From positions 1 to 64,000 of the IMG/VR virus record IMGVR_UViG_3300010165_000001: DNA of 64,000 nt. One strand, 5' to 3'. The translations under genes and the position numbers were made by a program. The notes under the pieces are model-generated. The model searched no databases. It was given only the letters and a program-made list of their open reading frames with translations, and was not told the origin of the DNA. This document shows, one piece after another, positions 24,246-35,226 of the stretch; the stretch's first letter is position 1; the number at the start of each line of letters is the position of its first letter. This DNA is from a virus.

Positions 24246-24413
24246 ATGTTGACATTTATTAGCTAGTCTAATTATGTTGACATTTTATTTTTATGAATTT
24301 AAATTTTAAAATCATTAGTGTTGACATTTATATAATAAGGTACTACTTATATAATTACGGGGTGGGTGAACGGGTATGTATAAGAGAGATAAATAACTAA
24401 TCATGTTGACTTT
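24246..24413. repeat. four RTGTTGACWTT boxes
   Basis: 24246-57, 24274-85, 24318-29, 24403-13; none has a well-spaced -10. Confidence 0.6.
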
Positions 24414-24806
24414 ATATTTCAAGAAAAATGTAATTCTAAAAATTTTACCACCAAAATTTTACCAGAAAAATATAAGCCCCAAGAGAGTGTGGGGTAGGTC
24501 TCACACAACCCACATGTTATGGCATATTATAACGGGGGTACTAAATTGTACACAACTCAATAAAAGATAATTAAAATAGAGATAAAATAATTACCTTTTT
24601 TTTATATTAATTATTTTATTCTTTAAGAAATTATTTTATTATTTTAAATTAATTTTTTTATATATTTTAATTATTCATCACAGACCGATTCAACCTCTAT
24701 TCTAAGGACAATAAATCTTTTAGGTACTATTTATCCTAAATAGATATGAAGTACAATGAGAGGGCTCTGTGTGGCTCTCATAATGAATAGAGAAGCGGAC
24801 AAAAAA

Positions 24807-24828
24807 AAGACTATCAATTGATAGTCTT
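24807..24828 (-). terminator. terminator (perfect 22-nt palindrome)
   Basis: AAGACTATCAATTGATAGTCTT followed by T8 in minus sense. Confidence 0.75.
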
Positions 24829-24903
24829 AAGGAATTTAACTAATTTTTCCAAGTCTTTAGTATTCTTCTTTAGTTTGTTTATCTCTTTATCTAATTTGTC
24901 CAT
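24814..24903 (-). CDS. 29-aa Lys-rich helical peptide (not in track)
   Basis: MDKLDKEINKLKKNTKDLEKLVKFLKTIN; SD GAGGAGG; stop inside terminator. Confidence 0.45.
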   Translation of the reverse strand: MDKLDKEINKLKKNTKDLEKLVKFLKTIN

Positions 24904-24946
24904 TGTATAGCCTCCTCAATGCTTACTATGTGCCTCTGTATATCTA

Positions 24947-25426
24947 TTATAGGTCTCTCTCTTCTATTATGATTTGAGCTACCAGTTCAACTGCTAAGCA
25001 TACAAAATTAATTTTATCTTGGTCTGTAGGTAATACCTCTACATCGTTCATACAGTCAAATATAAGCTCCTCTTGTTCCTCCTCGTCCATATCGTACCAA
25101 TCTTCATGAGTCTCTGCGAGTTGTGTTGCTTCGTCTTGCATGAGGTCTAGCATATCTTCATACTCCGTAAAGCTTGTGTTAATCTCACTATTTAATAACT
25201 CCATAAGCTCAACATTTATAATATCGTAAAAAGTATCATGTGTTAAGTCCTCCACGTATTCAAGTATAACCGCTTCAATATCGTCCTCATATCTGTTAAA
25301 GAAATCTACCACGTCTGAAGTATAAATAAGTTCCCCGATTGCTCCGCTTTGTACTCCGTAAGTTGCTACGTCTTCGATTGTGCTTTGTTCTTGTCCCTGT
25401 AAAAATTCTTTTATTGTGTTTGTCAT
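24947..25426 (-). CDS. highly acidic protein (candidate DNA mimic / anti-restriction)
   Basis: 159 aa, very rich in D/E; last gene of the early array; conserved GGGAATTGAT leader. Confidence 0.7.
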   Translation of the reverse strand: MTNTIKEFLQGQEQSTIEDVATYGVQSGAIGELIYTSDVVDFFNRYEDDIEAVILEYVEDLTHDTFYDIINVELMELLNSEINTSFTEYEDMLDLMQDEATQLAETHEDWYDMDEEEQEELIFDCMNDVEVLPTDQDKINFVCLAVELVAQIIIEERDL

Positions 25427-25431
25427 AATAA

Positions 25432-25509
25432 ATCAATTCCCTTCTTATTTGTTACACTAAGTATATCATGGTTACAAGTTACTGTCAATAGTTTTTTTAA
25501 ACTTTTTTA
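25432..25509. repeat. 78-bp promoter+leader cassette, copy 1
   Basis: Apparently identical to 25748-25825; holds UP tract, TTGACA (rc 25483-88), TATACT, leader to SD. Confidence 0.9.
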
Positions 25510-25743
25510 AACTAATTTCCAGTTGATATCTGAAATGTATTCCTCTAGGTCTTCCAAAGTTTCTGCAAATTTGATTGATTGTAGAGTATCAGAAGTTACC
25601 ACAACCGCTTCTGTGTCATGAATTTCATTGTCTAAGATATTATTGTCTATGTGGTCGATATACTCCCAAATTAGGGCGTGCTTTACGCTCTCAAGTGTTG
25701 CTATACTAATTACGATTTGGTTTTCTTGGTTTAATAATTTCAT
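25507..25743 (-). CDS. acidic small protein
   Basis: ATG 25743, 10 nt after GGGA; track TTG start 25752 rejected. Confidence 0.65.
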   Translation of the reverse strand: MKLLNQENQIVISIATLESVKHALIWEYIDHIDNNILDNEIHDTEAVVVTSDTLQSIKFAETLEDLEEYISDINWKLV

Positions 25744-25747
25744 TTGT

Positions 25748-25825
25748 ATCAATTCCCTTCTTATTTGTTACACTAAGTATATCATGGTTACAAGTTACTG
25801 TCAATAGTTTTTTTAAACTTTTTTA
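25748..25825. repeat. 78-bp promoter+leader cassette, copy 2
   Basis: See 25432-25509. Confidence 0.9.
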
Positions 25826-26033
25826 TTTCTTTTTTCTAGGTGTTTTGCTTCCTTAACTTGTTAATACAAGTATATCATGAAGCGGTTATTGTGTCAACAA
25901 TTTTTTAAAAGTTTTTTAACTTCTTTTTTTAAGTGTTCCGCTTCCTTACTACACTCTATATATTACAGTATAATGATATAAAAGTCAATAGATTTTTGAA
26001 ACTTTTTTAAATAAATTATTTTGAAGAAAGGTA

Positions 26034-26062
26034 TTGACAAACCGTAGGAATTATTATATAAT
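26034..26062 (+). promoter_or_regulatory. consensus sigma-A promoter on the plus strand with no ORF downstream
   Basis: TTGACA-17-TATAAT. Confidence 0.7.
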
Positions 26063-26213
26063 GGAAGTGGACGGTTATTTTTTTATAAAAAAGGACGGAC
26101 TCCCCCCGAAACCCCTTCTTTGGTCTTGGGCTCCTTAACCTTATATCTATATTATACTATGTATTGTAAGAATTGTCAACACTTTTTATAAACTTTTTTA
26201 ATTAATTTAAGTA

Positions 26214-26242
26214 TTGACAACCAGTAGCAAAATTGATATAAT
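26214..26242 (+). promoter_or_regulatory. consensus extended -10 promoter on the plus strand with no ORF downstream
   Basis: TTGACA-17-(TGa)TATAAT. Confidence 0.7.
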
Positions 26243-26248
26243 TAAGAT

Positions 26249-26398
26249 GATACCATAAAATACCTATAATTTTTTTATATAATATTATTTTTATACTAAA
26301 ATTATCGTTCACTTCATTATCTCAAAAATATTCACATTTGTCAAGCCCTAATTTAAAATAAAATAACCGCTTCAAGAATTTAATCCGAAGCGGTTTAT
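26249..26398 (+). ncRNA. candidate ~150-nt sRNA (promoter 26214 to hairpin 26365-26395)
   Basis: No ORF above 3 codons; contains the complement of the early-leader motif (26264-26283); inference only. Confidence 0.25.
26365..26395 (-). terminator. terminator hairpin using the GAAGCGGTT stem
   Basis: AACCGCTTC/GAAGCGGTT; minus sense followed by ATTTTATTTT. Confidence 0.7.
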
Positions 26399-26407
26399 AT
26401 AAATTTT

Positions 26408-26788
26408 TTATTTCATGATATTTAGTAATGTTGTATGTAATTCTTCAATATCTGATTGGTCTACAATGTACAATACACCGTTAATCTTGATGCTTATAGC
26501 TTCTTGTCCGTAAACTTCAATTAAACGTCTTACAATTCCTTTTAATTCAACTGTCATGAATTTTGCATTGTCTTGCATGTAGTACCATTCAAGATTTAAG
26601 TTGTTATCTTCCATGATACGTTTTTCATCTTCTGAATACCATTGACCTTTGATTTCTGTTATTGTACATCCGCCCGCTTCTATTGTGATACTATTTACAT
26701 ACTCTTGAATACGTTTGTCCGCAATTTCCACGCCGTTGTTATCCTCTTTAGGTATAATAATCTCAATTTTATTTTGTAGTTTAAACAT
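26408..26788 (-). CDS. hypothetical protein
   Basis: ATG 26788, 10 nt after AAGGA; earlier TTG/ATG are too close to the SD. Confidence 0.7.
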   Translation of the reverse strand: MFKLQNKIEIIIPKEDNNGVEIADKRIQEYVNSITIEAGGCTITEIKGQWYSEDEKRIMEDNNLNLEWYYMQDNAKFMTVELKGIVRRLIEVYGQEAISIKINGVLYIVDQSDIEELHTTLLNIMK

Positions 26789-26884
26789 TTTCATCAATTC
26801 CTTTTCTCTTTGATTTGTTAATACAAGTATATCATCTATATGCTAGATTGTCAACAGTTTTTTTAAACTTTTTTTTACTAGGTT

Positions 26885-26950
26885 GGAAGCGGTTTGACCG
26901 CTTCCCTTACCTTACAATTTAATAATAACATGCTAGGTCTTGAAAGTCAA
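26885..26950 (-). promoter_or_regulatory. orphan promoter + stem-loop unit
   Basis: TTGACT (rc 26945-50)-17-TATTAT, then GGAAGCGGT-ttg-ACCGCTTCC 26885-26905; no ORF before the next promoter. Confidence 0.55.
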
Positions 26951-26959
26951 GCCTTTTTA

Positions 26960-27211
26960 TTAAAAGTTTTCAATTTCTTTTTTAGTCATTTTATCATGAC
27001 CATGTTGCATAATAAATTCGTTCACATGTCTTGCAGTAGTTTGTGAGTAGTAACCAATTTCTACAATGTTATTGTTTTCATCTAATTCACAAACATCTGT
27101 GTTATAGCTTGTTAAAATCTTGTGACCGTTGTCCAATACGTCTACGACTGCTTTTCCGTAAAAACTTTTTTGTGTACTGTAAATGCTTTCTAATTTGTAT
27201 GTGTTATTCAT
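26960..27211 (-). CDS. hypothetical small protein
   Basis: ORF; AAGGAATTGAT leader. Confidence 0.7.
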   Translation of the reverse strand: MNNTYKLESIYSTQKSFYGKAVVDVLDNGHKILTSYNTDVCELDENNNIVEIGYYSQTTARHVNEFIMQHGHDKMTKKEIENF

Positions 27212-27310
27212 AATTAATCAATTCCTTTTCTGTTTTATTTGTTATCTTAATAATATCATGGTTTCAAGTTACTGTCAATAGTTTTTTTTAAACTTTTTTT
27301 ATTTAGGTTA

Positions 27311-27375
27311 GAAGCGGTTTGACCGCTTCCCTTACCTTACAATTTAATAATATCATGTAGTGCTTAAGTTGTCAA
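27311..27375 (-). promoter_or_regulatory. orphan promoter + stem-loop unit (second copy)
   Basis: TTGACA (rc 27370-75)-17-TATTAT, then GAAGCGGT-ttg-ACCGCTTC 27311-27329; ~70 bp similar to 26885-26950. Confidence 0.55.
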
Positions 27376-27378
27376 CAC

Positions 27379-27510
27379 TTATTTTGAATATTTTACAATT
27401 TTATTTGCTTTTAGAAATGTAACATCTTGACGGTAGTTTTTTAATTCTTCTGCAAATCTTTCATTATTTTTCATTCCGATTAAGTTTAAAGTTGTTGTAA
27501 TTTTTTTCAT
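27379..27510 (-). CDS. 43-aa basic peptide (not in track)
   Basis: MKKITTTLNLIGMKNNERFAEELKNYRQDVTFLKANKIVKYSK; AAGGAATTGAT leader and own promoter (rc -35 27572-77). Confidence 0.45.
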   Translation of the reverse strand: MKKITTTLNLIGMKNNERFAEELKNYRQDVTFLKANKIVKYSK

Positions 27511-27580
27511 TTTTCATCAATTCCTTTTCTGTTTGATTTGTTACCTTAATATTAACACGTTGTTTCTAGGTTGTCAATAG

Positions 27581-27727
27581 TTATCTAATAAAAATATTTA
27601 TATTATCTTGAATTCTGATAAGATAATCAATTGTAACAACAATTCCAGTAGTACCGAATAAAGTAACTAGCTTGTCTGTCAGTGGTGTAGATTTATATTT
27701 TTTATTATTGAATTTAAATTTTATCAT
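27581..27727 (-). CDS. 48-aa peptide (not in track)
   Basis: SD AGGAGGT 8 nt upstream; own promoter (rc -35 27784-89). Confidence 0.55.
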   Translation of the reverse strand: MIKFKFNNKKYKSTPLTDKLVTLFGTTGIVVTIDYLIRIQDNINIFIR

Positions 27728-27792
27728 TTTGTGTTACCTCCTAATTAATTTGTATCTAAATTATAACATACAGTAAATAAAACTGTCAAACA

Positions 27793-27867
27793 TTAATTTT
27801 TATTTTTTTCTTCCATGTAACCATAAATAAAAGCACTCATCATCACAAAACCAAATATAAATATCAT
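27793..27867 (-). CDS. 24-aa hydrophobic peptide (not in track)
   Basis: MIFIFGFVMMSAFIYGYMEEKNKN; SD AAGGAG; own promoter (rc -35 27920-25). Confidence 0.3.
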   Translation of the reverse strand: MIFIFGFVMMSAFIYGYMEEKNKN

Positions 27868-28114
27868 TTCTTTCAACTCCTTATCTTGTATCTAAACTAT
27901 AACATATAATACTAAATAAAGTCAAACATTAATTTTAAGCCCTAGAGAGCAAAGAGAAGTCCATTCTGTATACATTCAATAATAATTAGGATAAATACAT
28001 CATATAATAGAAGAAACTAAATAAACACACTCCAAAGTACCCTGTATAAGATAATACAATGAAGCGGTTAAAATAGAGCATAAAAAAATAATTTAAAAAA
28101 GTTTTAAAAACCTA

Positions 28115-28143
28115 TTGCAATTTATATCAAACTGTAGTATCAT
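28115..28143 (+). promoter_or_regulatory. plus-strand promoter with UP tract, no ORF downstream
   Basis: TTGCAA-17-TATCAT preceded by AAAAAAGTTTTAAAAACCTA. Confidence 0.6.
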
Positions 28144-28149
28144 TATAAG

Positions 28150-28225
28150 TGAAGTAAGAAAGAGGAGACCAGCCTGATAACCTCTATAAACCTCGGATAG
28201 GTTGGGGAGAAGGCACCCCCTAAAC
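28150..28225 (+). ncRNA. candidate structured sRNA (three adjacent GC-rich hairpins)
   Basis: AGAGG/CCTCT 28161-85, AACCT/AGGTT 28189-203, GGGG/CCCC 28204-19 in AT-rich DNA; strand uncertain because an antisense promoter sits at 28356. Confidence 0.25.
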
Positions 28226-28386
28226 TCATTTAAGTAGTAGACAACTCTATAAATTATTTATATAATTCCCCTAGAATACAATTGAACACAATATAAAAAC
28301 TTTTTTATATATAAAAAAGTCATCTCACTTTAATTATACACCTATTTTAACCACTTGTCAATACCCAATTTTACACTATTTTGTTA

Positions 28387-28415
28387 TTGACATTCATGCC
28401 GAATTTTGATATAAT
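28387..28415 (+). promoter_or_regulatory. consensus extended -10 promoter on the plus strand, no ORF downstream
   Basis: TTGACA-17-(TGa)TATAAT. Confidence 0.7.
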
Positions 28416-28954
28416 GGAATTGATGACCTAAAATACCTATAATTTTTTTATATAATACTATTTGAATAGAAGCGGATGCAATATATTAATTACTGAATAA
28501 GGTTGCCCGATTCATATCTGTAGCAAATCCTTTAGTCAATTAATACGTTACCATATTAAAGTAAACTATATAATTTTTTTTATATAATAACAAATGAATA
28601 GAAGAGGTCATAAACTAATAACTATTGAATAATGTTATATACAACTATATAATTTTTTTATATAATAACAAATGAATACAACCGCTTCAAATACTATAAG
28701 AATATTATACAATTGATTACAAGCCATTAGCCAACGAATACAATTCATTAACTATTCATTAGTACACAATATAATATCATTAGCATTGATTAGCCCACAA
28801 TTAGATAGTAAAATTATAGAATAAAATAAGTATTGAAGCGGACACAATACAATAACTATTGAATAATGTTTACTACAATAAGTTAAAAAGTTTAATAGGT
28901 GGGTAGGCAATATAAATATAATGTTATCTTATGGGGTGGTTAAAGAATTCCCAG

Positions 28955-29194
28955 GTTCTAATATATTTTAGTTATTCTATATTTTAGTTATTCTATAAAT
29001 TATTTATTCTATAATAAAGTTATCCTATAATAAAATTATACAATATAAAGGTTAAATAGTTCCTGTAGTATCTTATAATAAAGTTATTCTATAAATAAGT
29101 TAATCAATAAATAAATTAATCAATAAATAAATTAATCAATATTAAGGTTATTCAATTTTTCTTTTATTCTATACAGTAATTAATATATAATTTT
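28955..29194. repeat. degenerate 16-bp tandem array, ~15 units (consensus GTTATTCTATAAATAA)
   Basis: Units in register every 16 bp from 28955 or 28971 to 29178 or 29194, including three near-perfect TTAATCAATAAATAAA units at 29100-29147. Confidence 0.85.
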
Positions 29195-29221
29195 TTTATA
29201 TAAATTTAAACAAATAAAAAA

Positions 29222-29243
29222 CCCTAGGAATCTAATCCCAGGG
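29222..29243 (-). terminator. rho-independent terminator
   Basis: CCCTGGGA/TCCTAGGG stem (one G-U) then T6 in minus sense. Confidence 0.7.
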
Positions 29244-29267
29244 AATTCTATAATTTTTTTATATTAT

Positions 29268-29504
29268 TTAAATATATTGTTTTAATTCTTGCATATTATG
29301 AGAAACTTTTTTACTAACATAATAATTAGATAATTTTTTTATAATTTCCCACTGTTCGTTTATTTCATCTACAATAATAAATTCGTTATTATTTAATTCA
29401 TATACTATAGGTTCATCATAAACATATAATAAATTTTCCAATTCATTTTCATTTGGTTCAGTTGTAATCAATTCATTTTCTAATACATAATAATTTTTTG
29501 TCAT
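29268..29504 (-). CDS. hypothetical small acidic protein
   Basis: ORF; AAAGGATTGAT leader preceded by motif copy. Confidence 0.7.
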   Translation of the reverse strand: MTKNYYVLENELITTEPNENELENLLYVYDEPIVYELNNNEFIIVDEINEQWEIIKKLSNYYVSKKVSHNMQELKQYI

Positions 29505-29533
29505 TTTAAATCAATCCTTTTTTTATAATTTTT

Positions 29534-29800
29534 TTATATTTCTAACATTGCATTTAAATCTTCTAACACTTCAATAATATAATTATGAAATAATATAGGT
29601 GTAACATTAGAATTTTTATATAACTTTTCTTCATCTGTTATAATTGCATTATTTAATGCTATGCTATCTTGAATTTGAAAATAATTATTTAATTCTTTTA
29701 ATTCATTTAAAGTTACATCATAATTGAGTGCAATTCTATTTATTTCTTCATCAGTTCCAAAAAGTACAATTTTAATAATTTCATTTAATTTTTTATTCAT
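29534..29800 (-). CDS. hypothetical small protein
   Basis: Internal ATG 29800 after GGGA SD; track start 29932 would overlap the upstream gene and its hairpin. Confidence 0.6.
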   Translation of the reverse strand: MNKKLNEIIKIVLFGTDEEINRIALNYDVTLNELKELNNYFQIQDSIALNNAIITDEEKLYKNSNVTPILFHNYIIEVLEDLNAMLEI

Positions 29801-29849
29801 AATATCATATCCCTTTTTTATAAATTTTTTATTTAATTCAGAAGCGGTT

Positions 29850-30128
29850 TTAATTCTTAACCGCTTCATTATGTCTTGCTTCTGCTTCTGCATGAGTATC
29901 AGGGAAATCGAACGTGCGGACTGTTTTGCCAAATTCTGATGTTACAGTCGTTTTAGTGTGGTAGTAACCAAAGATAGTATATTTTTTATTTGTACGTCTC
30001 TCACCTTTCCAACGTTCATCAATAAAGCTAGTTTTGAATTGGTCATGTGTTAAGTACATTTCTATTGTTTCACCGTCTAAATTTGTGTAAGTCATTTTAA
30101 TTGCTTTCATTTGGTTTAAGTTTGTCAT
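29850..30128 (-). CDS. hypothetical small protein
   Basis: ATG 30128 after AGGATTTGAT; stop lies in GAAGCGGTT hairpin. Confidence 0.65.
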   Translation of the reverse strand: MTNLNQMKAIKMTYTNLDGETIEMYLTHDQFKTSFIDERWKGERRTNKKYTIFGYYHTKTTVTSEFGKTVRTFDFPDTHAEAEARHNEAVKN

Positions 30129-30309
30129 AATAATCAAATCCTATTCTATAATTTTTTTATATAATTCTAATATTCGTTATTTGCTAGGTGGTTTGTCTTA
30201 TTTGTTATCTTAATAATAACATGTATCTTGTAAGCTGTCAATACTTTTCTTTAACTTTTTTAAAAAGTTTTTTTAAGATGTGCTTGATTACCTTACAAAT
30301 ACAATTTTA

Positions 30310-30408
30310 CTACAGTTTGTTTAGTGAGTCAATAGCTTTTTTAAATTCTTTTTGCAATTTCTCAATTTCTTTTTTATCTTGCTTGAGTTTCTTAAGTAGT
30401 AAACTCAT
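30310..30408 (-). CDS. 32-aa Lys-rich helical peptide (not in track)
   Basis: MSLLLKKLKQDKKEIEKLQKEFKKAIDSLNKL; GGGGG SD; own promoter (rc -35 30515-20). Confidence 0.4.
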   Translation of the reverse strand: MSLLLKKLKQDKKEIEKLQKEFKKAIDSLNKL

Positions 30409-30576
30409 AATATATTGCCCCCAATTCTATAATTTTTTTTTATTTAATTTCCTTATTTGCTTAAGTTCCTTTTTGATTACCTTACAAATACTATTATATC
30501 AAGTTATAAGATAATTGCAATAGTTTTTTTAAATTTGGTAGTGCTTTAACGTGGTAAAAGGTTAAAGCACTTTTTT

Positions 30577-30744
30577 TTATTTTGCTACAATCCCATCAAC
30601 TAAAGTTAAACCATTTATTTTTTCAATTATTTTAGTTACGGTAATATTATATTGTGTATCATTTAATTCACTTTCTATATAATCCCCTACAACTAAATTA
30701 TTTTTTTGTACTTTTACGTTTTTTATAATTTGAACAGTTTTCAT
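30577..30744 (-). CDS. 55-aa protein (not in track)
   Basis: SD TAGGAGAA; followed by an 11-bp-stem hairpin. Confidence 0.55.
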   Translation of the reverse strand: MKTVQIIKNVKVQKNNLVVGDYIESELNDTQYNITVTKIIEKINGLTLVDGIVAK

Positions 30745-30786
30745 ATTTTATTTTCTCCTATTCTATAATTTTTTTATTTAAATATA

Positions 30787-31089
30787 TTAATCAAGAATTT
30801 CAATTTGATTAATTATTTTTTGATTTCTAATGATATATAACATTCTATTAATATATAAAAATGTTAAACCGTATTTATGAAACATCGTTCCATATTCTTG
30901 TGGTAACTGTTTTTTAAAAAACTTTTGTTTCTGATAAAACTCAACGTAACCCTGTTTGGTTTGTATAAGTAACTGCAAATATTCGCCTTGTGGTTTACCA
31001 TATACGATATAATTTTCATTACGTCTGTCTATAGCACCATATAAACCAAATACCCCTATTATATTTTGTATATCTTTATTCTTTTTCAA
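30787..31089 (-). CDS. hypothetical protein
   Basis: TTG start after GGAAGGTGA; ~230-nt leader from promoter with rc -35 at 31331-36. Confidence 0.6.
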   Translation of the reverse strand: MKKNKDIQNIIGVFGLYGAIDRRNENYIVYGKPQGEYLQLLIQTKQGYVEFYQKQKFFKKQLPQEYGTMFHKYGLTFLYINRMLYIIRNQKIINQIEILD

Positions 31090-31405
31090 TTAAATCACCT
31101 TCCGTATTTTTTAATAAGTTATCTATTTGTTATCTGTCTAATACTATACATGATATTAATATAAAAAACAACCCCCCAAATTAAAGAAATTTTTTTAGGT
31201 CTTAATTTTTGTTTTATATGGAAGAAACTGGAAATTAAGCAAAAAATAAATAGTATAATTTTTTTATATAATTCTGTATATAAGACAGACAGACCCCTCT
31301 AATTATTATGATAAAGGATAATACCCGATTTGTCAATACACAATTTTACACTTTTTTTAAATTGTCATAAAGTGTAAAATTTCTCATTTAATTTATTTAA
31401 AAGTA

Positions 31406-31433
31406 TTGAAATTATATATCAATCTGCTATAAT
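31406..31433 (+). promoter_or_regulatory. plus-strand promoter for 31492..31773
   Basis: TTGAAA-16-TATAAT, then the shared initial transcribed sequence AGTATTTGTAAGGTAATCAA. Confidence 0.6.
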
Positions 31434-31491
31434 AGTATTTGTAAGGTAATCAAACAACCTTAACAAATTAAATGAAAAGGATTGATATATA

Positions 31492-31773
31492 ATGAAAATT
31501 TACAATGAGGACAACACACAATTAATCGAAGTAATAGACGGATTAGACAACGGTCTAGCAATTAGCCAAACATTTAGAAATAGCACATATGAATTCTATA
31601 AAGAAAATAATAATATTCTTGTAAGATTAGACAGTGAAACAATTGGGCATATTGAGAGAATTCCATATGGCACATATGAACAGTTAAGATTTGAAGATTG
31701 GGACACTGAAAAAATTCTAATAATTGAATGGTTGGATGAGTTAGATGCTTATATTTTTGAATATGAAGTTTAA
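31492..31773 (+). CDS. hypothetical small protein (only plus-strand gene in the early region)
   Basis: ORF; AAAGGATTGAT leader as in the minus-strand genes. Confidence 0.65.
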   Translation: MKIYNEDNTQLIEVIDGLDNGLAISQTFRNSTYEFYKENNNILVRLDSETIGHIERIPYGTYEQLRFEDWDTEKILIIEWLDELDAYIFEYEV

Positions 31774-31794
31774 TATATAAAAAAATTATAGAAT

Positions 31795-31826
31795 ACACTG
31801 GGAATAATATTCCTGGTGTATTTTTT
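31795..31826 (+). terminator. rho-independent terminator
   Basis: ACACTGGGA/TCCTGGTGT stem (G-U pairs) then ATTTTTT. Confidence 0.7.
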
Positions 31827-31868
31827 ATGTTAATTAAATTTTTTTATAGGGCGATATTTCTTCATTCC

Positions 31869-32140
31869 TACTTATGCTTTTTACGATTTGATAAAAGTTA
31901 GAATATACTTATGCTTTTTACGTTTTCAATTTACTTCTAAATATGAATTGGAAATACTAGAAACATACTTAGGCTTTTTTACGATTGGACAAAACCTCAT
32001 TCCTACTTGTCTTTTTTACGTTTTGATATTTCTTTATTCATACTTATGATTTTTACTCTTACAGAGACACTACAGAGTGGTCTCCTTGGACTTCATTTCA
32101 TTTTAGGATTAATCCTACCTTCTTTATTCATACTTGTCTA
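31869..32140. repeat. six degenerate TACTTRKSTTTTTACG-type repeats
   Basis: Copies start near 31869, 31906, 31966, 32004, 32041, 32131. Confidence 0.6.
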
Positions 32141-32179
32141 AAACAAGCTCCTATTATCTCTCTGATTAAACATAAAAAA

Positions 32180-32203
32180 AACTACCCAACTTAATGAGTA
32201 GTT
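32180..32203 (-). terminator. rho-independent terminator
   Basis: AACTACTCA/TGGGTAGTT stem then T8 in minus sense. Confidence 0.7.
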
Positions 32204-32208
32204 AACAT

Positions 32209-33114
32209 TTATGGTATAAGTAAATCTAGTTCTTCTATTGTTTCATATACTAATGGTTCTTCATCGAGTATTTCATATCCATTATTATCGTATGCTCGAA
32301 TAGTAATTTTATTGTAATTTTCATGAGGTTTAATAATAGTAATCGCATCCTTACTTTCAATTGCTACAAAATTAACTTTATCATCCTTGCAATCAATTGA
32401 ATAAGTAAAATAACATGAGTCTAAATGTTTTATAACCTCTTCGATTACATCATCTACTAAAGCATTTTCACTTATAACAGAATTTAGTTCTTCAATACTA
32501 CCAATTTCTACTGATTTTACGTACCCTACTAAGTTTGATAAATACAACTTACCTTTATTCTCGAAAAATTCTAAGTCTCTTCCAGGAAATTTTACACTAA
32601 TTTTATCACCTGTATCATCAAAAGCATAGCCTGTATCAACTAAATAATTGAAAACCTTAACTAGCTTATCCTCTTTTAAAATACTACCAATCTCTTTTTG
32701 TACATTCCTACTTAGGAAAGTTTCTAATTCTTGAGAAGTCATTTCAAAATTTAGGTCTCCGATAAATAAAACGAAGTCTTTTTCTGAACCTTTATTTATA
32801 ACAATCTCTTTACTATCTAACTTGATATATACTTGGAAATCTCCTGATAAATATTCAAGGTCAAAATCTAGTTCATACTTGTCTAAAAGTGATTCTAGTT
32901 CTACTAGATTCTCATTCTTAATTTGCTTAATAATATTATTTAAAGCAATTTTTTCACCTTCAATATCAAATAATACTGCATCTATACTTGTGACTTTTGA
33001 ACCTATATATTCCTTTACGTTTTTTTTAAGTTTCTCGTCACCTTCTATTCTTTCTGTAAGTAAATCATCTAATAATTCTAGTACCTTTGTTTGGTATCTT
33101 GTTTTATTTGTCAT
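32209..33114 (-). CDS. hypothetical acidic protein (301 aa)
   Basis: ORF; SD TAGGAGGA. Confidence 0.7.
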   Translation of the reverse strand: MTNKTRYQTKVLELLDDLLTERIEGDEKLKKNVKEYIGSKVTSIDAVLFDIEGEKIALNNIIKQIKNENLVELESLLDKYELDFDLEYLSGDFQVYIKLDSKEIVINKGSEKDFVLFIGDLNFEMTSQELETFLSRNVQKEIGSILKEDKLVKVFNYLVDTGYAFDDTGDKISVKFPGRDLEFFENKGKLYLSNLVGYVKSVEIGSIEELNSVISENALVDDVIEEVIKHLDSCYFTYSIDCKDDKVNFVAIESKDAITIIKPHENYNKITIRAYDNNGYEILDEEPLVYETIEELDLLIP

Positions 33115-33134
33115 TATAAATTCCTCCTAATTTT

Positions 33135-33317
33135 TTAATAGTAATAATATACTGGTGTTGTCCATACTTGGTATGAATGATATACAACACACAGTGAAAA
33201 TGCTAATAACATTAATTGAAACCAAAGTTGTTCTTTATCTCCAACTTGATAACATTCCCATACATTTCTTAATAAGTATACTGAAGCCATGATACTAATA
33301 ATCATTGCAAATCCCAT
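33135..33317 (-). CDS. small two-TM membrane protein
   Basis: ORF; SD AAGGAG. Confidence 0.6.
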   Translation of the reverse strand: MGFAMIISIMASVYLLRNVWECYQVGDKEQLWFQLMLLAFSLCVVYHSYQVWTTPVYYYY

Positions 33318-33337
33318 AGTCTTTTCACTCCTTATTC

Positions 33338-33631
33338 CTACTTGTCTTTTTTACCGAATCTCTCTTGTGCTAATTTAGACATTTGCTCTCTCGTCTCTTT
33401 CTTAACAGGTTTTCTAAAGCTAATTAAGTCCTCTTCTAATTTTACTCTAATATATGTTGGTGTACCATTTTCATATTGTTCTACAACCTCTGCTTGAGGG
33501 TATTGTTTTAGTATTTTTGTGATGTGTTTCCTAGTTGAACTCTCGATAATCCAACATCCATTTAGTGCATCCCATACACAAACTGTTTCCATCTCTTCTT
33601 TAGGTACACCTGTTTCTGTTATTTTAACCAT
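33338..33631 (-). CDS. hypothetical protein
   Basis: ORF; SD TAGGAGGA. Confidence 0.65.
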   Translation of the reverse strand: MVKITETGVPKEEMETVCVWDALNGCWIIESSTRKHITKILKQYPQAEVVEQYENGTPTYIRVKLEEDLISFRKPVKKETREQMSKLAQERFGKKDK

Positions 33632-33646
33632 TTAATTTTCCTCCTA

Positions 33647-34018
33647 TCATCCTTTAATATTACTAATTAATTCTTTGATAGCTACATACTCAGGTGCGAA
33701 TATTCCTATAATGTTAAAACCAATCAATAAAAGTCCTACACATGCTAATATTGCTATAATTAACCAACCTGAAATAGCTATTGTTGTGCTTGAGTCTAAT
33801 ACGTATACGTCTGAGTCATTTAAGGAACTTTTCTCCCCTAACTTATCAATAGTTCGGTCTGCATACTTAAATACAAAAGGAATAATAGCTAAACATATTA
33901 AACCTATTAGGGTATACACTATACTAGAAGCCCAAACCCCTTGTACATATGTTTCAAATCCTTGGCTACTTATGTCTTTCAAATACTTTCCTACTTCATT
34001 AATCATTTTATCATCCAT
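33647..34018 (-). CDS. membrane protein, paralog of 35227..35631
   Basis: Two hydrophobic spans; shared C-terminus PEYVAIKELISNIK / PEIYAIKEILYQIK. Confidence 0.7.
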   Translation of the reverse strand: MDDKMINEVGKYLKDISSQGFETYVQGVWASSIVYTLIGLICLAIIPFVFKYADRTIDKLGEKSSLNDSDVYVLDSSTTIAISGWLIIAILACVGLLLIGFNIIGIFAPEYVAIKELISNIKG

Positions 34019-34238
34019 TTAATTCTCCTCCTATATAGTTAATACTTCTAATTGAATCTACCATTATTATAGTATAACCTTCTATGTTATGCAAGTCATT
34101 TTTAACTTTATCTACGTTTTTATTCAATGAAACAAATATAATTTTTCTCGTATCATCGATGTAAATATCCATACCATCTTCATTATTTGTTAAAATCGTA
34201 TTTTCTTTTTTATTCAACAGGTTCACCACTTTCCTCAT
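34011..34238 (-). CDS. hypothetical small protein
   Basis: ORF overlapping the lipoprotein gene's 3' end; weak SD. Confidence 0.5.
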   Translation of the reverse strand: MRKVVNLLNKKENTILTNNEDGMDIYIDDTRKIIFVSLNKNVDKVKNDLHNIEGYTIIMVDSIRSINYIGGELNG

Positions 34239-34629
34239 AATAACCTTTCTCTTGAAACTTTCTTTCTTTTTCTCTATTTTCTTCTACCTGACGATTTACG
34301 CCCTCTTTCCATCTCTCGTATTCACCTTCTTCGTAACCATAACTTCCTCCACTAAATTCTATTAACTCTTCTTCAGCTTCCTCTGCGTGAGGGTCTACCC
34401 ATTCATCTTCAGATGTATCAACAGTAGCTCCATTTTCTTCATAAGGTACTTCTTCTAGTTTCTCCTGTCCACCTTCTTCTTCCCACCAAGGTACGTTAGG
34501 GTCATCTTTCTTTGTTTCTACTTGTGTTTTTTCTTTTGTTGGTTCCTCTTTACTTACTTGTTCTTCATTTCCACATGCTCCTAGTAACAATACACTACCT
34601 ATAACTAAACTTCCTAATAATTTTTTCAT
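34210..34629 (-). CDS. lipoprotein with acidic mature domain
   Basis: MKKLLGSLVIGSVLLLGAC: signal peptide + lipobox LLGAC. Confidence 0.75.
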   Translation of the reverse strand: MKKLLGSLVIGSVLLLGACGNEEQVSKEEPTKEKTQVETKKDDPNVPWWEEEGGQEKLEEVPYEENGATVDTSEDEWVDPHAEEAEEELIEFSGGSYGYEEGEYERWKEGVNRQVEENREKERKFQEKGYYEESGEPVE

Positions 34630-34661
34630 TTAAATCGTCTCCTTTTATTTGGTATATACTT

Positions 34662-34690
34662 AGTATAAATGATTTCTATAAGATTGTCAA
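34662..34690 (-). promoter_or_regulatory. sigma-A promoter
   Basis: TTGACA-17-TATACT in minus sense. Confidence 0.7.
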
Positions 34691-34692
34691 TA

Positions 34693-34797
34693 CTATTTTT
34701 TAAATAAATCTACTAAAGAATAAATACTACTTACAATGATAGTTAATAACACTAATAATACTACGAAGCCTGAGAATATACTTCCAATTGTAATCAT
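34693..34797 (-). CDS. 34-aa single-TM peptide (not in track)
   Basis: MITIGSIFSGFVVLLVLLTIIVSSIYSLVDLFKK; SD TAGGAGGTG. Confidence 0.5.
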   Translation of the reverse strand: MITIGSIFSGFVVLLVLLTIIVSSIYSLVDLFKK

Positions 34798-34882
34798 TCT
34801 AACACCTCCTAATTGATTATATATTAAATATAACATACCCGCTTCATAGCTGTCAAGAATAGAAGCAGGTATTTCATTTCAC

Positions 34883-35215: not shown

Positions 35216-35226
35216 AATTATCTCTC

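Follow-up and report, generated by a model that had tools for sequence, protein, structure and literature searches.

Early genes and promoters of the region

The region described here lies within a 64,000-nucleotide stretch of viral DNA (IMG/VR record IMGVR_UViG_3300010165_000001, positions 1 to 64,000; hereafter the window). By sequence comparison, the window is that of a Baoshanvirus-type Staphylococcus myovirus (Herelleviridae, Twortvirinae); Baoshanvirus PSU4 shares 95.6% identity with the flanks, and Tre-gene matches were found in 282 Staphylococcus myovirus records. The small genes of the region, whose sizes (24-159 aa) had been given correctly in the preliminary description of this DNA, are by sequence homologues of the tre genes encoded in long terminal repeats (LTRs), including gp014-gp018 of phage K, and the type of region is thus already known. 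Further homologues are Stab22 g012, g013 and g018 and PHROG families including a TreN-like one, and the repeat_region annotated in Stab22 spans the homologous genes. The earlier phrase 'Twort-like terminal-repeat genes' therefore holds literally, the ORFs being homologous to Kayvirus tre/LTR genes. The genes are as follows (Chi and the AT motif are treated below).

24947..25426, minus: 159-aa early gene, homologue of K gp018 (53% aa identity) and Stab22 g021; phrog_2543, 4.9e-55; in-frame Chi at 25270
25507..25743, minus: 78-aa early gene, homologue of K gp017 (79%); phrog_3480; in-frame Chi at 25605
26408..26785, minus: 125-aa early gene, homologue of Stab22 g018; phrog_3543; in-frame Chi at 26674
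26960..27211, minus: 83-aa early gene; phrog_4264, 5e-32
27379..27510, minus: 43-aa gene, K gp015 (97.7%)
27581..27727, minus: TreN-like membrane protein gene, 48 aa; phrog_3325; K gp014 family
27793..27867, minus: ORF for a 24-aa hydrophobic peptide (MIFIFGFVMMSAFIYGYMEEKNKN); AAGGAG SD
29268..29504, minus: 78-aa gene, homologue of Stab22 g013 (87% aa)
29534..29800, minus: 88-aa ORF, no PHROG match; AT-motif variant and SD upstream
29850..30128, minus: 92-aa gene, homologue of the N-terminal half of Stab22 g012
30310..30408, minus: 32-aa ORF; AT motif and GGGGG SD upstream
30577..30744, minus: 55-aa ORF; AT motif and AGGAG upstream
30787..31089, minus: 100-aa ORF; TTG start, GGAAGGTGA SD, leader of ~210 nt from P31336
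31492..31773, plus: 93-aa gene, followed by an AT motif (31779) and a terminator (31790-31824)

Both strands of 25400-31900 were searched with the promoter model TTGACA-N16-18-TATAAT, scored out of 12. Seventeen matches scored at least 11/12, compared to 0.93 ± 0.99 in 200 dinucleotide shuffles (maximum 4), and six were perfect (0.01 expected); the density of matches of at least 11/12 was 2.6/kb in the region versus 0.39/kb in the remaining window. All 18 minus-strand -35 positions listed previously are present, and 17 of them score at least 10/12; the promoter at 25983 is weaker (TTGACT-17-TAATAT, 9/12). The spacer is 17 nt in 15 of the 18, 18 nt at 27784 and 27920, and 16 nt at 30515. Furthermore, the UP-like tract AAAAAGTTTAAAAAAACTA occurs in two exact copies and about eight with up to three mismatches, each directly adjoining a -35 element, and the 78-bp block 25432-25509 recurs with 100% identity at 25748-25825, upstream of two different genes (gp018-family and gp017-family ORFs), as had been described. 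In addition, we found five strong plus-strand promoters absent from that description (26034, 26214 and 28387, all 12/12; 28115; 31406), which make divergent and convergent pairs with minus-strand promoters.

P25488, 25460..25488, minus: TTGACA-17-TATACT, TG-extended; exact UP-like tract; within the 78-bp cassette 25432-25509
P25804, 25776..25804, minus: gene-proximal in a triple tandem array; second cassette copy 25748-25825
P25897, 25869..25897, minus: middle of the triple array; Chi heptamer (25879, plus) in the spacer
P25988, 25960..25988, minus: weak, distal in the triple array; back-to-back with P26034; surrounding block 25942-26040 conserved in relatives
P26034, 26034..26062, plus: 12/12; no ORF downstream; convergent with P26179
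P26179, 26151..26179, minus: 12/12; without ORF; predicted RNA of ~55 nt stops at terminator-like hairpin 26097-26114
P26214, 26214..26242, plus: 12/12, TG-extended; no ORF; paralogue of P28387; transcript would extend to the bidirectional terminator 26365-26395
P26344, 26316..26344, minus: TTGACA-17-GATAAT; directly downstream of the Chi-stem terminator; no ORF ahead of P26179; homologous to the K promoter at 4962
P26854, 26826..26854, minus: gene-proximal; conserved leader ...AACAAATCAAAGAGAAAAGGAATTGAT..ATG
P26950, 26922..26950, minus: upstream tandem member; initial transcribed sequence GTAAGGTAAGG, then hairpin
P27278, 27250..27278, minus: gene-proximal; homologue of the K promoter at 6285
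P27375, 27347..27375, minus: upstream tandem member; homologue of the K promoter at 6189
P27577, 27549..27577, minus: serves the 43-aa gene
P27789, 27760..27789, minus: 12/12, 18-nt spacer; serves the TreN-like gene
P27925, 27896..27925, minus: paralogue of P27789; serves the 24-aa ORF
P28115, 28115..28143, plus: TTGCAA-17-TATCAT, UP-like tract; no ORF; convergent with P28361
P28361, 28333..28361, minus: 12/12; first minus-strand promoter inside the inferred terminus; followed by ~270 nt without a credible ORF
P28387, 28387..28415, plus: 12/12; directed toward the inferred genome end through ~540 nt of ORF-free repeats
P30241, 30213..30241, minus: gene-proximal
P30332, 30304..30332, minus: upstream tandem member, GTAAGGTAA start; overlaps the 3' end of the 32-aa ORF
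P30520, 30493..30520, minus: TTGCAA-16-TATAAT, GTAAGGTAA start
P31336, 31308..31336, minus: paralogue of P28361; upstream AGTGTAAAATTGKGTA common to both
P31406, 31406..31433, plus: TTGAAA-16-TATAAT, GTAAGGTAA start; serves the 93-aa gene

These results collectively demonstrate that host sigma-A promoters close to consensus, equipped with A-tract UP-like elements, drive the early genes. Divergent pairs stand back-to-back, and the transcripts of their plus-strand members contain no ORF and converge on the next minus-strand promoter. The supposed 'promoters with no gene' turned out to be upstream members of tandem arrays (P26950 to P26854, P27375 to P27278, P30332 to P30241, and P25988 to P25897 to P25804); the promoters in these are 91-97 bp apart with no terminator in between, and each array thus feeds one and the same gene. 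Previous work showed that K gp014-gp018 give abundant transcripts at 2 min (PMC9241854) and that LTR transcription units form the earliest transcript class (PMC11598898). The K transcript snc003 (6186-6352) aligns at 88% to window positions 27378 to 27212, a stretch covering P27375, the hairpin, P27278 and the leader; the K homologue of the 'orphan' promoter P27375 is thus transcribed in vivo, snc003 being the transcript detected. Given that the homologous K genes are the first to be transcribed abundantly, and that snc003 arises from the K counterpart of an 'orphan' promoter, unmodified host RNA polymerase would be expected to fire the early promoters within the first minutes after injection.

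Chi heptamers and hairpins

A hairpin stem reused across the region had been seen without being recognised as a host signal. This stem, GAAGCGG(T), is identical in sequence to the Chi site of Staphylococcus aureus, GAAGCGG, for AddAB/RexAB (PMC8022716, PMC11442139, bioRxiv 10.1101/2021.07.08.451572). Eighteen of the 20 copies in the window lie in 24.2-32.1 kb and two in the other 56 kb, while 500 shuffles gave a mean of 0.076 copies (maximum 2) for 24.2-32.1 kb. Phage K carries 20 copies per LTR (40 in total) and none in its 131-kb unique part, and GAAGCGG is its top LTR-enriched 7-mer (~600-fold); Stab22 carries 33 in the LTR and none in the next 3.2 kb. The heptamer is therefore hugely over-represented here, and both K and the examined Stab22 stretch carry it in the LTR only. 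Copies within genes occupy the same codon offset in the window as in K, via Ala-GCG (5% codon usage). We found no prior report of such Chi loading.

24792..28841: ten solitary Chi heptamers, plus at 24792, 25879, 28061, 28469 and 28835, minus at 25270, 25605, 25938, 26674 and 28682
26365..26395: bidirectional terminator-like hairpin of -15.0 kcal/mol, with a T-rich tail on either strand; inverted Chi pair AACCGCTTC...GAAGCGGTT
26885..26905: hairpin lying between two tandem promoters, made by the inverted Chi pair GGAAGCGGT-ttg-ACCGCTTCC; lacks a U-tail
27310..27330: second inverted Chi pair hairpin; homologue of K 6235/6246
29841..29868: inverted Chi pair hairpin; overlaps the 92-aa gene at its stop codon; ~0.9 kb beyond the inferred LTR
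29222..29243, minus: intrinsic terminator of the 78-aa gene; AT motif on each side

Chi occurs in both orientations, and the four perfect inverted pairs are the hairpins. The perfect 9-bp stem at 26885-26905 (-14.1 kcal/mol) was as described, while the stem at 27310-27330 (-12.4 kcal/mol) consists of eight Watson-Crick pairs and a terminal G-U rather than nine Watson-Crick pairs. Reuse of the GAAGCGGT stem at 26365-26395 and 29841-29868 was also borne out, but the terminator role proposed for the latter was not, as it has no T-rich tail. Among the four stem-loops only 26365-26395 has such tails; A-rich sequence follows the other three on the transcribed strand, and these are thus not canonical intrinsic terminators. 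The hairpins could act at the RNA level, in addition to or instead of serving as Chi pairs. The proposed analogy to the PeSL cassettes of T4-type phages fits in function, with a promoter and stem-loop at module borders, but not in membership, since only one of the four stem-loops has a terminator tail.

Probable genome terminus and extent of the repeat

28938..28961, minus: homologue of the Kayvirus physical left end, reading TTAGAACCTGGG followed by AATTCTTTAACC
28962..29153: 16-nt tandem repeat array, ~11.5 copies, on the unique side of the bracket motif and directly adjoining it
28448..28878: ORF-free repeat family D5, four copies, each an AT motif followed by Chi or a Chi-like heptamer; in copy 3 the heptamer is inverted in the same repeat context

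In K-like phages, the 12-bp inverted repeats TAAGTACCTGGG/CCCAGGTACTTA divide the LTR from unique DNA (PMC6022877), and the annotated LTR end of Stab22 carries CCCAGGTACTTA. In the window, CCCAGGTTCTAA at 28950 is followed on the minus strand by GGAATTCTTTAACC, compared to GGAATTCTTTTACC at K positions 1-14; the 12-mer matches TAAGTACCTGGG at 10/12 and the following 14 nt match K at 13/14. The next ~300 nt align to the LTR starts of K and Stab22. By this alignment, 28961 to 28938 is homologous to the Kayvirus bracket motif together with the opening bases of the K and Stab22 genomes. The array beside the motif has its counterpart in kayvirus 812/K, whose unit genome terminates in a tandem repeat (PMC6445280). 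We infer that the physical left end of virion DNA would lie at ~28951, that 29.0-31.9 kb, present once, would form the right end of the unit genome, and that two LTR copies were presumably merged into one in the assembly. The LTR would then probably span only ~24.5-28.95 kb (~4.5 kb), and the suggested terminal redundancy would apply to this part but not to the whole region, inside which the left-end homologue lies.

Chi sites number 16 in 4.2 kb on the LTR side of ~28951 versus 3 in 9 kb on the other. Those at -115 and -268 from the inferred end are conserved in PSU4 and Golestan101-M; the former, 28835 (plus, ~110-115 bp away), is in the correct orientation for that end. An LTR edge at the second tandem repeat, 31840-32056, would also fit, as this is where mosaic sequence switches to colinear sequence; the LTR inferred here leaves out one Chi hairpin (29841-29868), several strong promoters and the majority of the AT motifs, and no inverted partner of the bracket motif was found near 24.47 kb.

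Mosaicism and a possible role for Chi

26265..31790: AT-rich linker motif ATTATATAAAAAAATTATAG(A/G)AT, 14 copies, given in the sense of the adjacent gene

The region had been called hyperplastic, and this was supported: its coverage by any single relative, out of 282 matching records, was at most 41%, while the adjacent 31869-36804 is a single colinear block (92% with PSU4). Of 59 breakpoints in alignments with relatives, 32 lay no more than 20 bp from a promoter core or an AT motif (32% expected, p=4e-4), an enrichment at the regulatory cassettes. This enrichment is moderate and may only reflect breakpoints lying between genes, since promoters and AT motifs occupy most intergenic space. Overall, the promoters, 78-bp block and hairpins of the preliminary description were confirmed, and its reading was supported in part. 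Its likening to SPO1 holds for architecture but not for proteins, as no homologue of the SPO1 terminal-redundancy proteins was found in the region. Like the LTR here for S. aureus Chi, the SPO1 terminal redundancy is enriched for the B. subtilis Chi AGCGG (3.2x denser, for a 5-mer against a control of 36.8 kb of unique DNA only), and its top-enriched words are GAGCGG (24 vs 2) and TGAGCGG (10 vs 0).

In S. aureus, Chi limits the processing that AddAB carries out from free DNA ends (PMC8860600). Sequence identity and distribution suggest that GAAGCGG acts as Chi in this phage, whose natural host may be a coagulase-negative Staphylococcus, whose Chi may differ. Host AddAB/RexAB would load on the free ends of injected linear DNA and meet a correctly oriented Chi within ~0.1-0.8 kb, at which point it would stop degrading the DNA and instead generate a recombinogenic 3' tail within the repeat. 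Both orientations would be needed, since the LTR, the same at both ends, points outward in one sense at the left end and in the other at the right, and inverted Chi pairs would provide both; no clear positional polarity was detected within the LTR (9 plus and 9 minus here, 13 and 7 in K). The switch at Chi would protect the early genes and favour LTR-LTR recombination, leading to circularisation or concatemer formation. We consider this overall reading likely, with an immediate-early region around the LTR that carries host sigma-A promoters and is loaded with Chi. Chi-stimulated exchange, together with many short common cassettes (promoter/UP/leader units and the 20-nt AT-rich linker flanking ORFs), may have produced the patchwork among relatives.

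Gene content and promoters of the region between the genome arms

The promoter-dense region (25400-31900) matched 282 records by megablast, all of Staphylococcus myoviruses, on genes annotated as Tre (terminal repeat-encoded), and the best coverage of the region by any single one of these records was at most 41%. The flank at 36-58 kb showed 95.6% identity to Baoshanvirus vB_SurM-PSU4 and 91-92% identity to JDF86, Golestan101-M and phiSA_BS1/BS2. The window is oriented opposite to the phage K convention, and homology placed the tail-fibre/BofL arm, including the gp022 homologue, at 1-24.2 kb (plus strand) and the end of the replication arm at 32.2-64 kb (minus strand). This arm-LTR-arm order is the same as in the Stab22 record, in which the long terminal repeat (LTR) is annotated as repeat_region 1-12225; because the region between the arms corresponds to the LTR, the two LTR copies have probably been collapsed in the assembly. 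Homologues of K and Stab22 genes were found in the region as listed below, and Stab22 g020 and g021 likewise gave homologues there by tblastn. Stab22 g001, the first LTR gene, did not match the 301-aa ORF at 32209-33114. The likeness to Twort-like terminal-repeat genes drawn in the preliminary description thus holds for both gene homology and position.

Homologues in the region (tblastn, except where PHROGs is named)
24974-25426, K gp018 homologue, 53% amino acid identity
25519-25743, K gp017 homologue, 79% amino acid identity
26414-26794, Stab22 g018 homologue
27382-27510, K gp015 homologue, 97.7%
27581-27727, TreN-like membrane protein (PHROGs)
29271-29504, Stab22 g013 homologue
29871-30122, Stab22 g012 homologue

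Two further features of gene content were seen outside this list. A single tRNA-Arg (CCU) gene lies at 38741-38818 (minus strand), in the replication-arm end of the window. In the phiSA_BS2 locus, a 3-gene block (ORFs of 471, 273 and 246 nt) that is single in BS1 is directly duplicated (10649-11732 and 12234-13317, 1585-bp spacing), which is either cassette amplification or an assembly artefact of the LTR region.

Both strands of 25200-32200 were read, and promoters were scored against TTGACA-N16-18-TATAAT with invariant A2 and T6 of the −10 box; P with a number denotes a sigma-A promoter by the start of its −35 box, on the minus strand unless marked +. All 18 minus-strand −35 hexamers that had been proposed were present, 17 of them scoring at least 10/12 and the weakest, at 25983 (TTGACT-17-TAATAT), 9/12. 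The region as a whole contains 17 promoters at ≥11/12, compared to 0.93 ± 0.99 expected from 200 dinucleotide-preserving shuffles, and 6 at 12/12, compared to 0.01 expected from such shuffles, which confirms the reported abundance; promoter density was 2.6 per kb compared to 0.39 per kb elsewhere in the window. The UP-like tract AAAAAGTTTAAAAAAACTA, also described before, occurs in 2 exact and ~8 near-exact copies, each abutting a −35 box, and the 78-bp blocks 25432-25509 and 25748-25825 are indeed 100% identical and lie 5′ of two unrelated genes. Strong plus-strand promoters missing from the preliminary description were found at 26034, 26214 and 28387 (each 12/12), 28115 and 31406. Promoter alignment showed that the gene-proximal cassettes (25488, 25804, 26854, 27278, 27577 and 30241) are built from a UP-like tract, TTGACA, a 17-nt stretch with TG and a TATAcT/TATtAT box, with the conserved leader ...AACAAAT.A.A.AGAAAAGGAATTGAT...ATG, and that the predicted transcripts from the upstream cassettes 26950, 27375, 30332, 30520 and 31406(+) start with GTAAGGTAA. 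The promoter pairs 27789/27925 and 28361/31336 are paralogous. Two adjacent paralogous mini-cassettes (27581-27727 with promoter 27760-27789, and 27793-27867 with promoter 27896-27925) have a near-identical promoter and leader and encode tiny hydrophobic products, the 48-aa TreN-like protein and a 24-aa ORF, which could be membrane-active early peptides.

Five promoters had previously been read as promoters with no gene. We found that they are upstream members of tandem arrays, in which the −35 boxes are 91-97 bp apart with no terminator between them.

Tandem promoter arrays (minus strand)
P25988, P25897, P25804, then the gp017-like gene
P26950, P26854, then the g018-like gene
P27375, P27278, then an 83-aa gene
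P30332, P30241, then the g012-like gene

The unit formed by P27375, hairpin, P27278 and leader shares 88% identity with its K homologue, and since the K copy coincides with snc003 (K 6186-6352, RNA-seq), an upstream promoter of the P27375 type is active in a close homologue. Better candidates for genuinely gene-less promoters are P26179−, P26344−, P26034+, P26214+, P28115+, P28387+ and P28361−, with no credible ORF downstream. Four promoter pairs stand back to back and diverge (25988/26034, 26179/26214, 28361/28387 and 31336/31406), and convergent transcripts would therefore arise; the ORF-less transcripts would be either regulatory RNAs or transcriptional noise of bidirectional UP regions. 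GC-rich islands at 26069-26144 (GGACGGACTCCCCCCGAAACCCCTTCTTTGGTCTTGGGCTCC) and 28150-28230 (GAGGAGACCAGCCTGATAACCTC...GGGGAGAAGGCACCCCC) lie exactly at the overlap of convergent ORF-less transcripts; they are conserved in close relatives only and have no significant predicted fold. A strong intrinsic terminator at 30540-30580 (plus strand; AGTGCTTTAAC-N10-GTTAAAGCACT followed by T8) opposes the minus-strand genes; read on the minus strand, it is accompanied only by an upstream A-run. Its probable role is to halt antisense transcription arriving from lower coordinates. Its 10-nt loop explains why the terminator scan did not pick it up.

In phage K, the five transcripts that are abundant at 2 min are those of gp014-gp018 (PMC9241854), the earliest transcript class is made up of LTR units (PMC11598898), and the legend to Fig. 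5A of Botka 2019 (PMC6445280) presents the LTR promoters of phage 812 as a separate consensus sigma-70 class. Because the K homologues are the earliest and the LTR promoters are a class of their own, a promoter-dense region of this kind is well known. By analogy with the earliest-transcribed K homologues gp014-gp018, and with snc003 lying over the homologue of P27375-P27278, these data indirectly suggest that host RNA polymerase transcribes the region in the first minutes. A tie between the UP-dependent promoters and shut-off through an anti-sigma factor of the ORF67/gp137 type was considered and dropped, as tblastn found no such homologue in the 64-kb window.

The reused stem is the host Chi heptamer

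AddAB/RexAB of S. aureus recognises 5′-GAAGCGG-3′ as its Chi sequence, according to Halpern 2007 as quoted by PMC8022716, PMC11442139 and bioRxiv 10.1101/2021.07.08.451572. The preliminary description correctly characterised a known kind of region; it drew one mistaken inference (the orphan promoters), did not place the probable genome end within the region and did not identify the stem, which it had reported as reused between hairpins. By exact match and by over-representation, the reused stem GAAGCGG is the host Chi sequence. All of the hairpins described there exist, but the one at 27310-27330 has 8 Watson-Crick pairs plus a G-U, and, of the terminator tails, T-rich ones flank 26365-26395, whereas past each of the other three the transcribed strand continues as A-rich sequence.

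Hairpins formed by inverted Chi pairs
26365-26395, before P26344
26885-26905, before P26854
27310-27330, before P27278
29841-29868

The window contains 20 exact copies of GAAGCGG, 18 of them within 24792-29861, compared to a mean of 0.076 and a maximum of 2 in 500 shuffles of 24.2-32.1 kb, and no other GC-containing 7-mer of the region is as enriched. Each of the four hairpins is a perfect inverted pair, and ten more copies are solitary. Three copies lie within ORFs, in the frame GAA-GCG-G; in the gp017 and gp018 homologues, Chi is at the same codon offsets as in K (132 and 150 nt) while protein identity is only 53-79%, and the Ala codon used, GCG, makes up 5% of the Ala codons of this phage. 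In the ORF-free 4-copy repeat family at 28448-28878 (D5), the heptamer is inverted in one copy within the same context. There was no obvious positional polarity in the orientation of Chi within the LTR.

The same concentration was found in related phages. In the complete genome of phage K, 40 of 40 Chi copies lie in the LTRs (20 per LTR) and none in the 131-kb unique part, and GAAGCGG is the top LTR-enriched 7-mer (~600-fold). In Stab22, the LTR has 33 copies, and the adjoining 3.2 kb lacks the heptamer altogether. Chi was present at each Twortvirinae LTR locus examined, mostly in 9-35 copies per locus, with 5 in the PSU4 end fragment. We also compared 50 kb of the SPO1 genome, 1-13185 against 13186-50000: the B. 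subtilis Chi, AGCGG, occurs at 3.49/kb in the 13.2-kb terminal redundancy compared to 1.09/kb in the next 36.8 kb. The top words of the terminal redundancy were GAGCGG (24 versus 2), TGAGCGG (10 versus 0) and GAGCGGG (9 versus 0), often as close inverted pairs, which suggests that SPO1 uses an extended Chi-like word.

The SPO1 host-takeover module, to which the region had been likened, is alike in architecture: small early genes lie in a terminal redundancy (inferred for the window), strong sigma-A promoters are clustered, units are both divergent and convergent, and the host-Chi word is enriched, often in inverted pairs. The likeness does not extend to the proteins. By tblastn, the 27 SPO1 terminal-redundancy proteins gave no match in 24-32 kb, the only match being that of gp36.2 at 42.7-43.3 kb, and none of gp37-gp60 has homology in the region; in addition, the SPO1 genes are larger and have assigned shutoff functions, and SPO1 promoter density is lower (5 at ≥11/12 in 13.2 kb).

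Mosaic structure and the probable genome end

In blastn comparisons with twelve relatives, 24.2-31.87 kb is a patchwork, followed by one colinear block. Blocks ending on promoters include 25799-27382 in PSU5, 26919-27382 in PSU4 and 27571-27800 in Golestan101-M. We analysed the positions of 59 distinct block ends. For the proposal that gene shuffling is bounded by promoter cassettes, 14 of 25 block ends in 25.4-28.45 kb lie ≤10 bp from a promoter core (29% expected, p=0.005), although this is confounded with intergenic position. In 28.45-31.85 kb, 15 of 28 lie ≤30 bp from an AT motif, a 20-nt AT-rich linker (26% expected, p=0.002), and 32 of all 59 lie ≤20 bp from a promoter core or AT motif taken jointly (32% expected, p=4e-4). 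Promoter cores alone gave a weak enrichment over the whole region (p~0.02), which became clear only after the region was split and the AT motif added. The association gives moderate support to cassette-bounded shuffling, and it is confounded because promoters and AT motifs fill most of the intergenic space.

The AT motif, ATTATATAAAAAAATTATAG(A/G)AT, occurs in 14 copies, all within 26.27-31.79 kb and 13 of them in the sense of the adjacent gene (TATAATTTTTTTATATAAT on the plus strand; ATTATATAAAAAAATTATAGAAT on the sense strand), and no copy lies in the remaining 56 kb of the window. Its copies (for example at 26265, 28438, 28569, 28648, 29186, 29249, 29524, 29819, 30147, 30428, 30764, 31254 and 31779) lie just upstream of the Shine-Dalgarno sequence or between stop codon and terminator, and coincide with mosaic breakpoints. 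Phage K has 5 copies per LTR compared to 2 in 131 kb, and K 4289-4314 and window 30756-30781 share a 26-nt identity across an AT-motif site. The AT motif was also considered as a Kayvirus late promoter and ruled out, since late promoters, as published, have the −10 motif TGTTATATTA and lack a −35 box (PMC10383478).

In K-like phages, the 12-bp inverted repeats TAAGTACCTGGG and CCCAGGTACTTA separate the LTR from unique DNA (PMC6022877); in Stab22, CCCAGGTACTTA is exactly at the annotated LTR end and CGTACCTGGG directly before the right LTR copy. A diverged homologue of this bracket motif, CCCAGGTTCTAA (10/12), was found at 28950-28961. Past it, the minus strand reads GGAATTCTTTAACC, compared to GGAATTCTTTTACC at phage K positions 1-14; the ~300 nt beyond can be aligned with the initial ~350 nt of the LTR in both K and Stab22. 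On the other side of the bracket motif is a 16-nt tandem array (28962-29153); according to the account of the genome ends of kayvirus 812 in PMC6445280, a variable tandem repeat ends the unit genome there, just before the right LTR. The terminus element found at 28951 is conserved in every Baoshanvirus examined, and also in a contig from IMG/VR; in this contig, the single public one with the terminus motif, the motif is internal, and no contig ended there. We infer from the sequence that virion DNA begins at ~28951 and reads toward lower coordinates; with this left end, it would end in ...GGTTAAAGAATTCC. A bracket partner was not found near 24.2-24.9 kb in searches for TTAGAACCTGGG and TAAGTACCTGGG at up to 2 mismatches, and near 24.47 kb there is only a positional analogue, ATAAGCCCCAAG.

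The density of Chi drops sharply at the terminus motif: in the window, PSU4 and Golestan101-M, there are 16 sites in 4.2 kb on the LTR side compared to 3 in 9 kb on the other side, and the sites at −115 and −268 from the terminus are kept in all three. The plus-strand Chi at 28835 is correctly oriented and lies ~115 bp inside the inferred left end; in K, the distance to the first correctly oriented Chi is 403 bp at the left end and 559 bp at the right. Chi here agrees with the known Chi sites of AddAB/RexAB in its exact heptamer, in having both orientations near free ends and in a correct copy within ~115 bp of the inferred end. In contrast, chromosomal Chi of the host occurs at ~1 per 8 kb and is co-oriented with replication, whereas here it occurs at ~1 per 0.3 kb in a phage terminal repeat, often as inverted pairs.

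The region shares with the Kayvirus LTR (K, 812 and Stab20-23) the homologous small genes gp014-gp018 and the Tre families, a location flanked by the tail-fibre/BofL arm and the replication-arm end, near-consensus sigma-A promoters, a candidate bracket 12-mer beside a tandem repeat and a gene content that varies between phages; in K, the LTR has the earliest transcription and LTR sncRNAs. Chi loading is common to the window, K and Stab22. The bracket motif here differs in its divergence and in the partner that was not found, and the inferred LTR is ~4.5 kb compared to 7.6-12.2 kb, about half, because the terminus homologue lies between the g013-like and TreN-like genes, both LTR-internal in Stab22. 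It is possible, if rather unlikely, that the LTR is instead the whole of ~24.5-31.85 kb (~7.4 kb, a Kayvirus-like size), with the 28951 element an internal relic or duplicate and the edge at a tandem repeat at 31840-32056. The patchwork does give way to colinearity at 31869, and the repeat there varies in copy number as does the one ending the kayvirus 812 unit genome; moreover, a Chi hairpin, AT motifs and strong promoters reach 29.8-31.4 kb, and the Stab22 homologues of 29268-30128 sit inside the LTR. However, nothing resembling the bracket motif or the beginning of the LTR in K or Stab22 was found near 31.85 kb, and the sole terminus homologue is the one at 28951, conserved in all Baoshanviruses and coincident with the drop in Chi density.

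Several observations concern the borders of the region and of public records. The 31840-32056 element is a degenerate ~37-nt tandem repeat (TTTTTTACG..TTGA....CATTCCTACTTATGC) at the border of mosaic and colinear DNA, and is expanded to ~8 units of 74 bp in the phiSA_BS1 (~8700-9440) and BS2 (~8790-9570) loci; it could be an alternative LTR edge, an iteron/origin array or an array bound by protein. Immediately beyond the inferred boundary of the LTR on the TreU side are short AT tandem repeats (24438-24673) and a run (24249-24420) of plus-strand TTGACA/TTGACT boxes at 24249, 24277, 24322 and 24405, which point into the repeat; in position, the run corresponds to K snc004 (8370-8665, minus strand), an RNA that spans the boundary of the K LTR. 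GC-rich islands in this part of the window (ACGGGGTGGGTGAACGGG; CCCCAAGAGAGTGTGGGGTAGGTC) resemble those at the Stab22 boundary. Public Baoshanvirus records were opened at arbitrary points inside the LTR region; in window coordinates, position 1 of PSU4 is at ~28600, position 1 of JDF86 at ~25930 and the end of BS2 at ~26100. These record ends are not physical ends, because none starts at the terminus homologue.

A possible role of Chi in the terminal repeats

AddAB-type enzymes enter free duplex ends and degrade the DNA until they meet Chi on the 3′-ended strand, after which they make a 3′ single-stranded tail for RecA. From AddAB/RecBCD biochemistry, an enzyme coming from a DNA end meets 5′-GAAGCGG-3′ on the 3′-ended strand. 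If both ends of a linear genome carry Chi-dense repeats, the loss would not exceed ~0.1-0.8 kb and would be backed up by the other repeat copy. Both Chi orientations would be needed, since the two ends present one and the same repeat outward in opposite polarity, and inverted Chi pairs would supply both in ~20-30 bp. The enzyme would thereby be turned into a substrate-maker for LTR-LTR recombination, giving a circularised or concatenated genome. In S. aureus, according to PMC8860600 and the work cited there, processing from free ends, including those of injected phage DNA, is limited by Chi. On balance, we favour the proposal that the terminal repeats of Herelleviridae act as Chi "bumpers", in which host Chi is concentrated almost exclusively, running in either orientation and frequently forming inverted pairs that serve as hairpins too, so that AddAB/RexAB entering the injected DNA is disarmed within a few hundred bases and converted to a recombinase loader that joins the repeats.

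It seems improbable to us that the GAAGCGGT stems act at the RNA level (as terminators, 5′ stabilisers, or RNase III sites like those of phage SP82 early mRNA) and were spread by duplication of the cassettes, with the identity to Chi coincidental. The four sites fold stably (−12 to −15 kcal/mol), the cassettes are clearly paralogous, and one stem is plausible as a bidirectional terminator; two stems lie ~10 nt downstream of predicted starts, after the conserved purine-rich GTAAGGTAAGG, a placement that recalls the 5′ stabilisers of Gram-positive mRNAs reportedly treated by Hue, Cohen and Bechhofer in 1995 and by Panganiban and Whiteley in 1983. However, 10 of the 18 copies are solitary half-sites unable to form hairpins, the three copies in ORFs keep their codon offsets and use a rare codon, and three of the four hairpins have no U-tail. 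Furthermore, the 40 copies in K are all in LTRs, whereas terminators occur genome-wide, the SPO1 repeat is enriched for the Chi of its own host, and the chance that the top GC-containing 7-mer equals the single known host Chi is ~1 in 8000. The hairpins may also act in RNA, which is compatible with a DNA-level role. A reading that we regard as less likely than not holds that plasticity is driven mainly by mobile promoter and stem-loop cassettes that shuffle single-gene modules, with no role for Chi, as for the promoter-early stem-loops (PeSLs) defined in T4-type phages (Arbiol 2010, PMC2839356; Comeau 2014, PMC4122927). As with PeSLs, a short conserved unit of a strong early promoter of the sigma-70 type and a stem-loop recurs here through a hyperplastic stretch of small, non-essential ORFs, and replacements and indels have their borders at these units. 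Composite units of stem-loop, UP tract and promoter precede P26344, P26854 and P27278, degenerate half-sites precede P25897 and P25804, block ends of relatives coincide with promoter cores, and the exact 78-bp duplicate before two different genes indicates recent conversion between cassettes. The PeSL likeness seen in the preliminary description thus stands for these promoter/stem-loop units but, judged by sequence, fails for termination, since PeSL stem-loops terminate effectively and three of the four here have no terminator tail. There is also no sequence relationship to PeSLs, the stems here being host Chi sites, and in the right half of the region the borders follow the promoter-less AT motif, not promoters; the enrichment at promoters may reflect intergenic location only. 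Such exchanges are compatible with the Chi explanation, because Chi would raise their rate.

It is also doubtful that the ORF-less promoters (P26034+, P26179−, P26214+, P26344−, P28115+, P28361− and P28387+) and the upstream tandem members are a source of functional small or antisense RNAs regulating phage or host genes, and not redundant promoters. Three of the ORF-less promoters are perfect (12/12), convergent pairs have overlapping transcripts, and phage K RNA-seq detected sncRNAs in the LTR, of which snc003 aligns with P27375..P27278 and snc002 overlaps an AT-motif copy homologous to 26265-26286. However, snc003 may equally well be the 5′ leader of the gp016-family mRNA, and beyond close relatives the promoter parts are conserved but the transcribed parts are not. 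A search of 24-33 kb against Rfam at a permissive E-value found no known RNA family (the sole match was a chance miRNA, E=0.36), and the seven predicted ORF-less transcripts folded no better than shuffles (z −0.5 to −2.8), with no convincing structure.

A promoter-dense tre region is textbook for Twort-like phages, and the present one is a new member from the little-studied Baoshanvirus. Within the literature searched, what is new is that the reused stem is host Chi and that Chi is essentially confined to the terminal repeats; no paper linking Chi or AddAB to Kayvirus, phage K, SPO1 or Herelleviridae was found in open-access text. This Chi loading is the part that would surprise a specialist. 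The probable genome end inside the region matters for annotation, as Baoshanvirus records could be re-opened at the true terminus. If the Chi bumper proposal is true, the oligomer most enriched in the terminal repeat would predict the host Chi (GAAGCGG for Staphylococcus; for B. subtilis SPO1, (T)GAGCGG(G), in which AGCGG is embedded). This would offer an easy computational way to find the Chi of Gram-positive hosts, including Firmicutes lacking a known one, e.g. Listeria, Enterococcus and Lactobacillus. Functional Chi would also bear on phage engineering, and RexAB inhibitors, which have been proposed as antibiotic adjuvants, might alter phage efficacy. Finally, it would explain how these therapeutic phages, whose injected linear DNA is free-ended, survive AddAB/RexAB and limit CRISPR spacer capture from their ends, how the repeats recombine into replicating concatemers and why mosaicism in the genome is greatest in the LTR.
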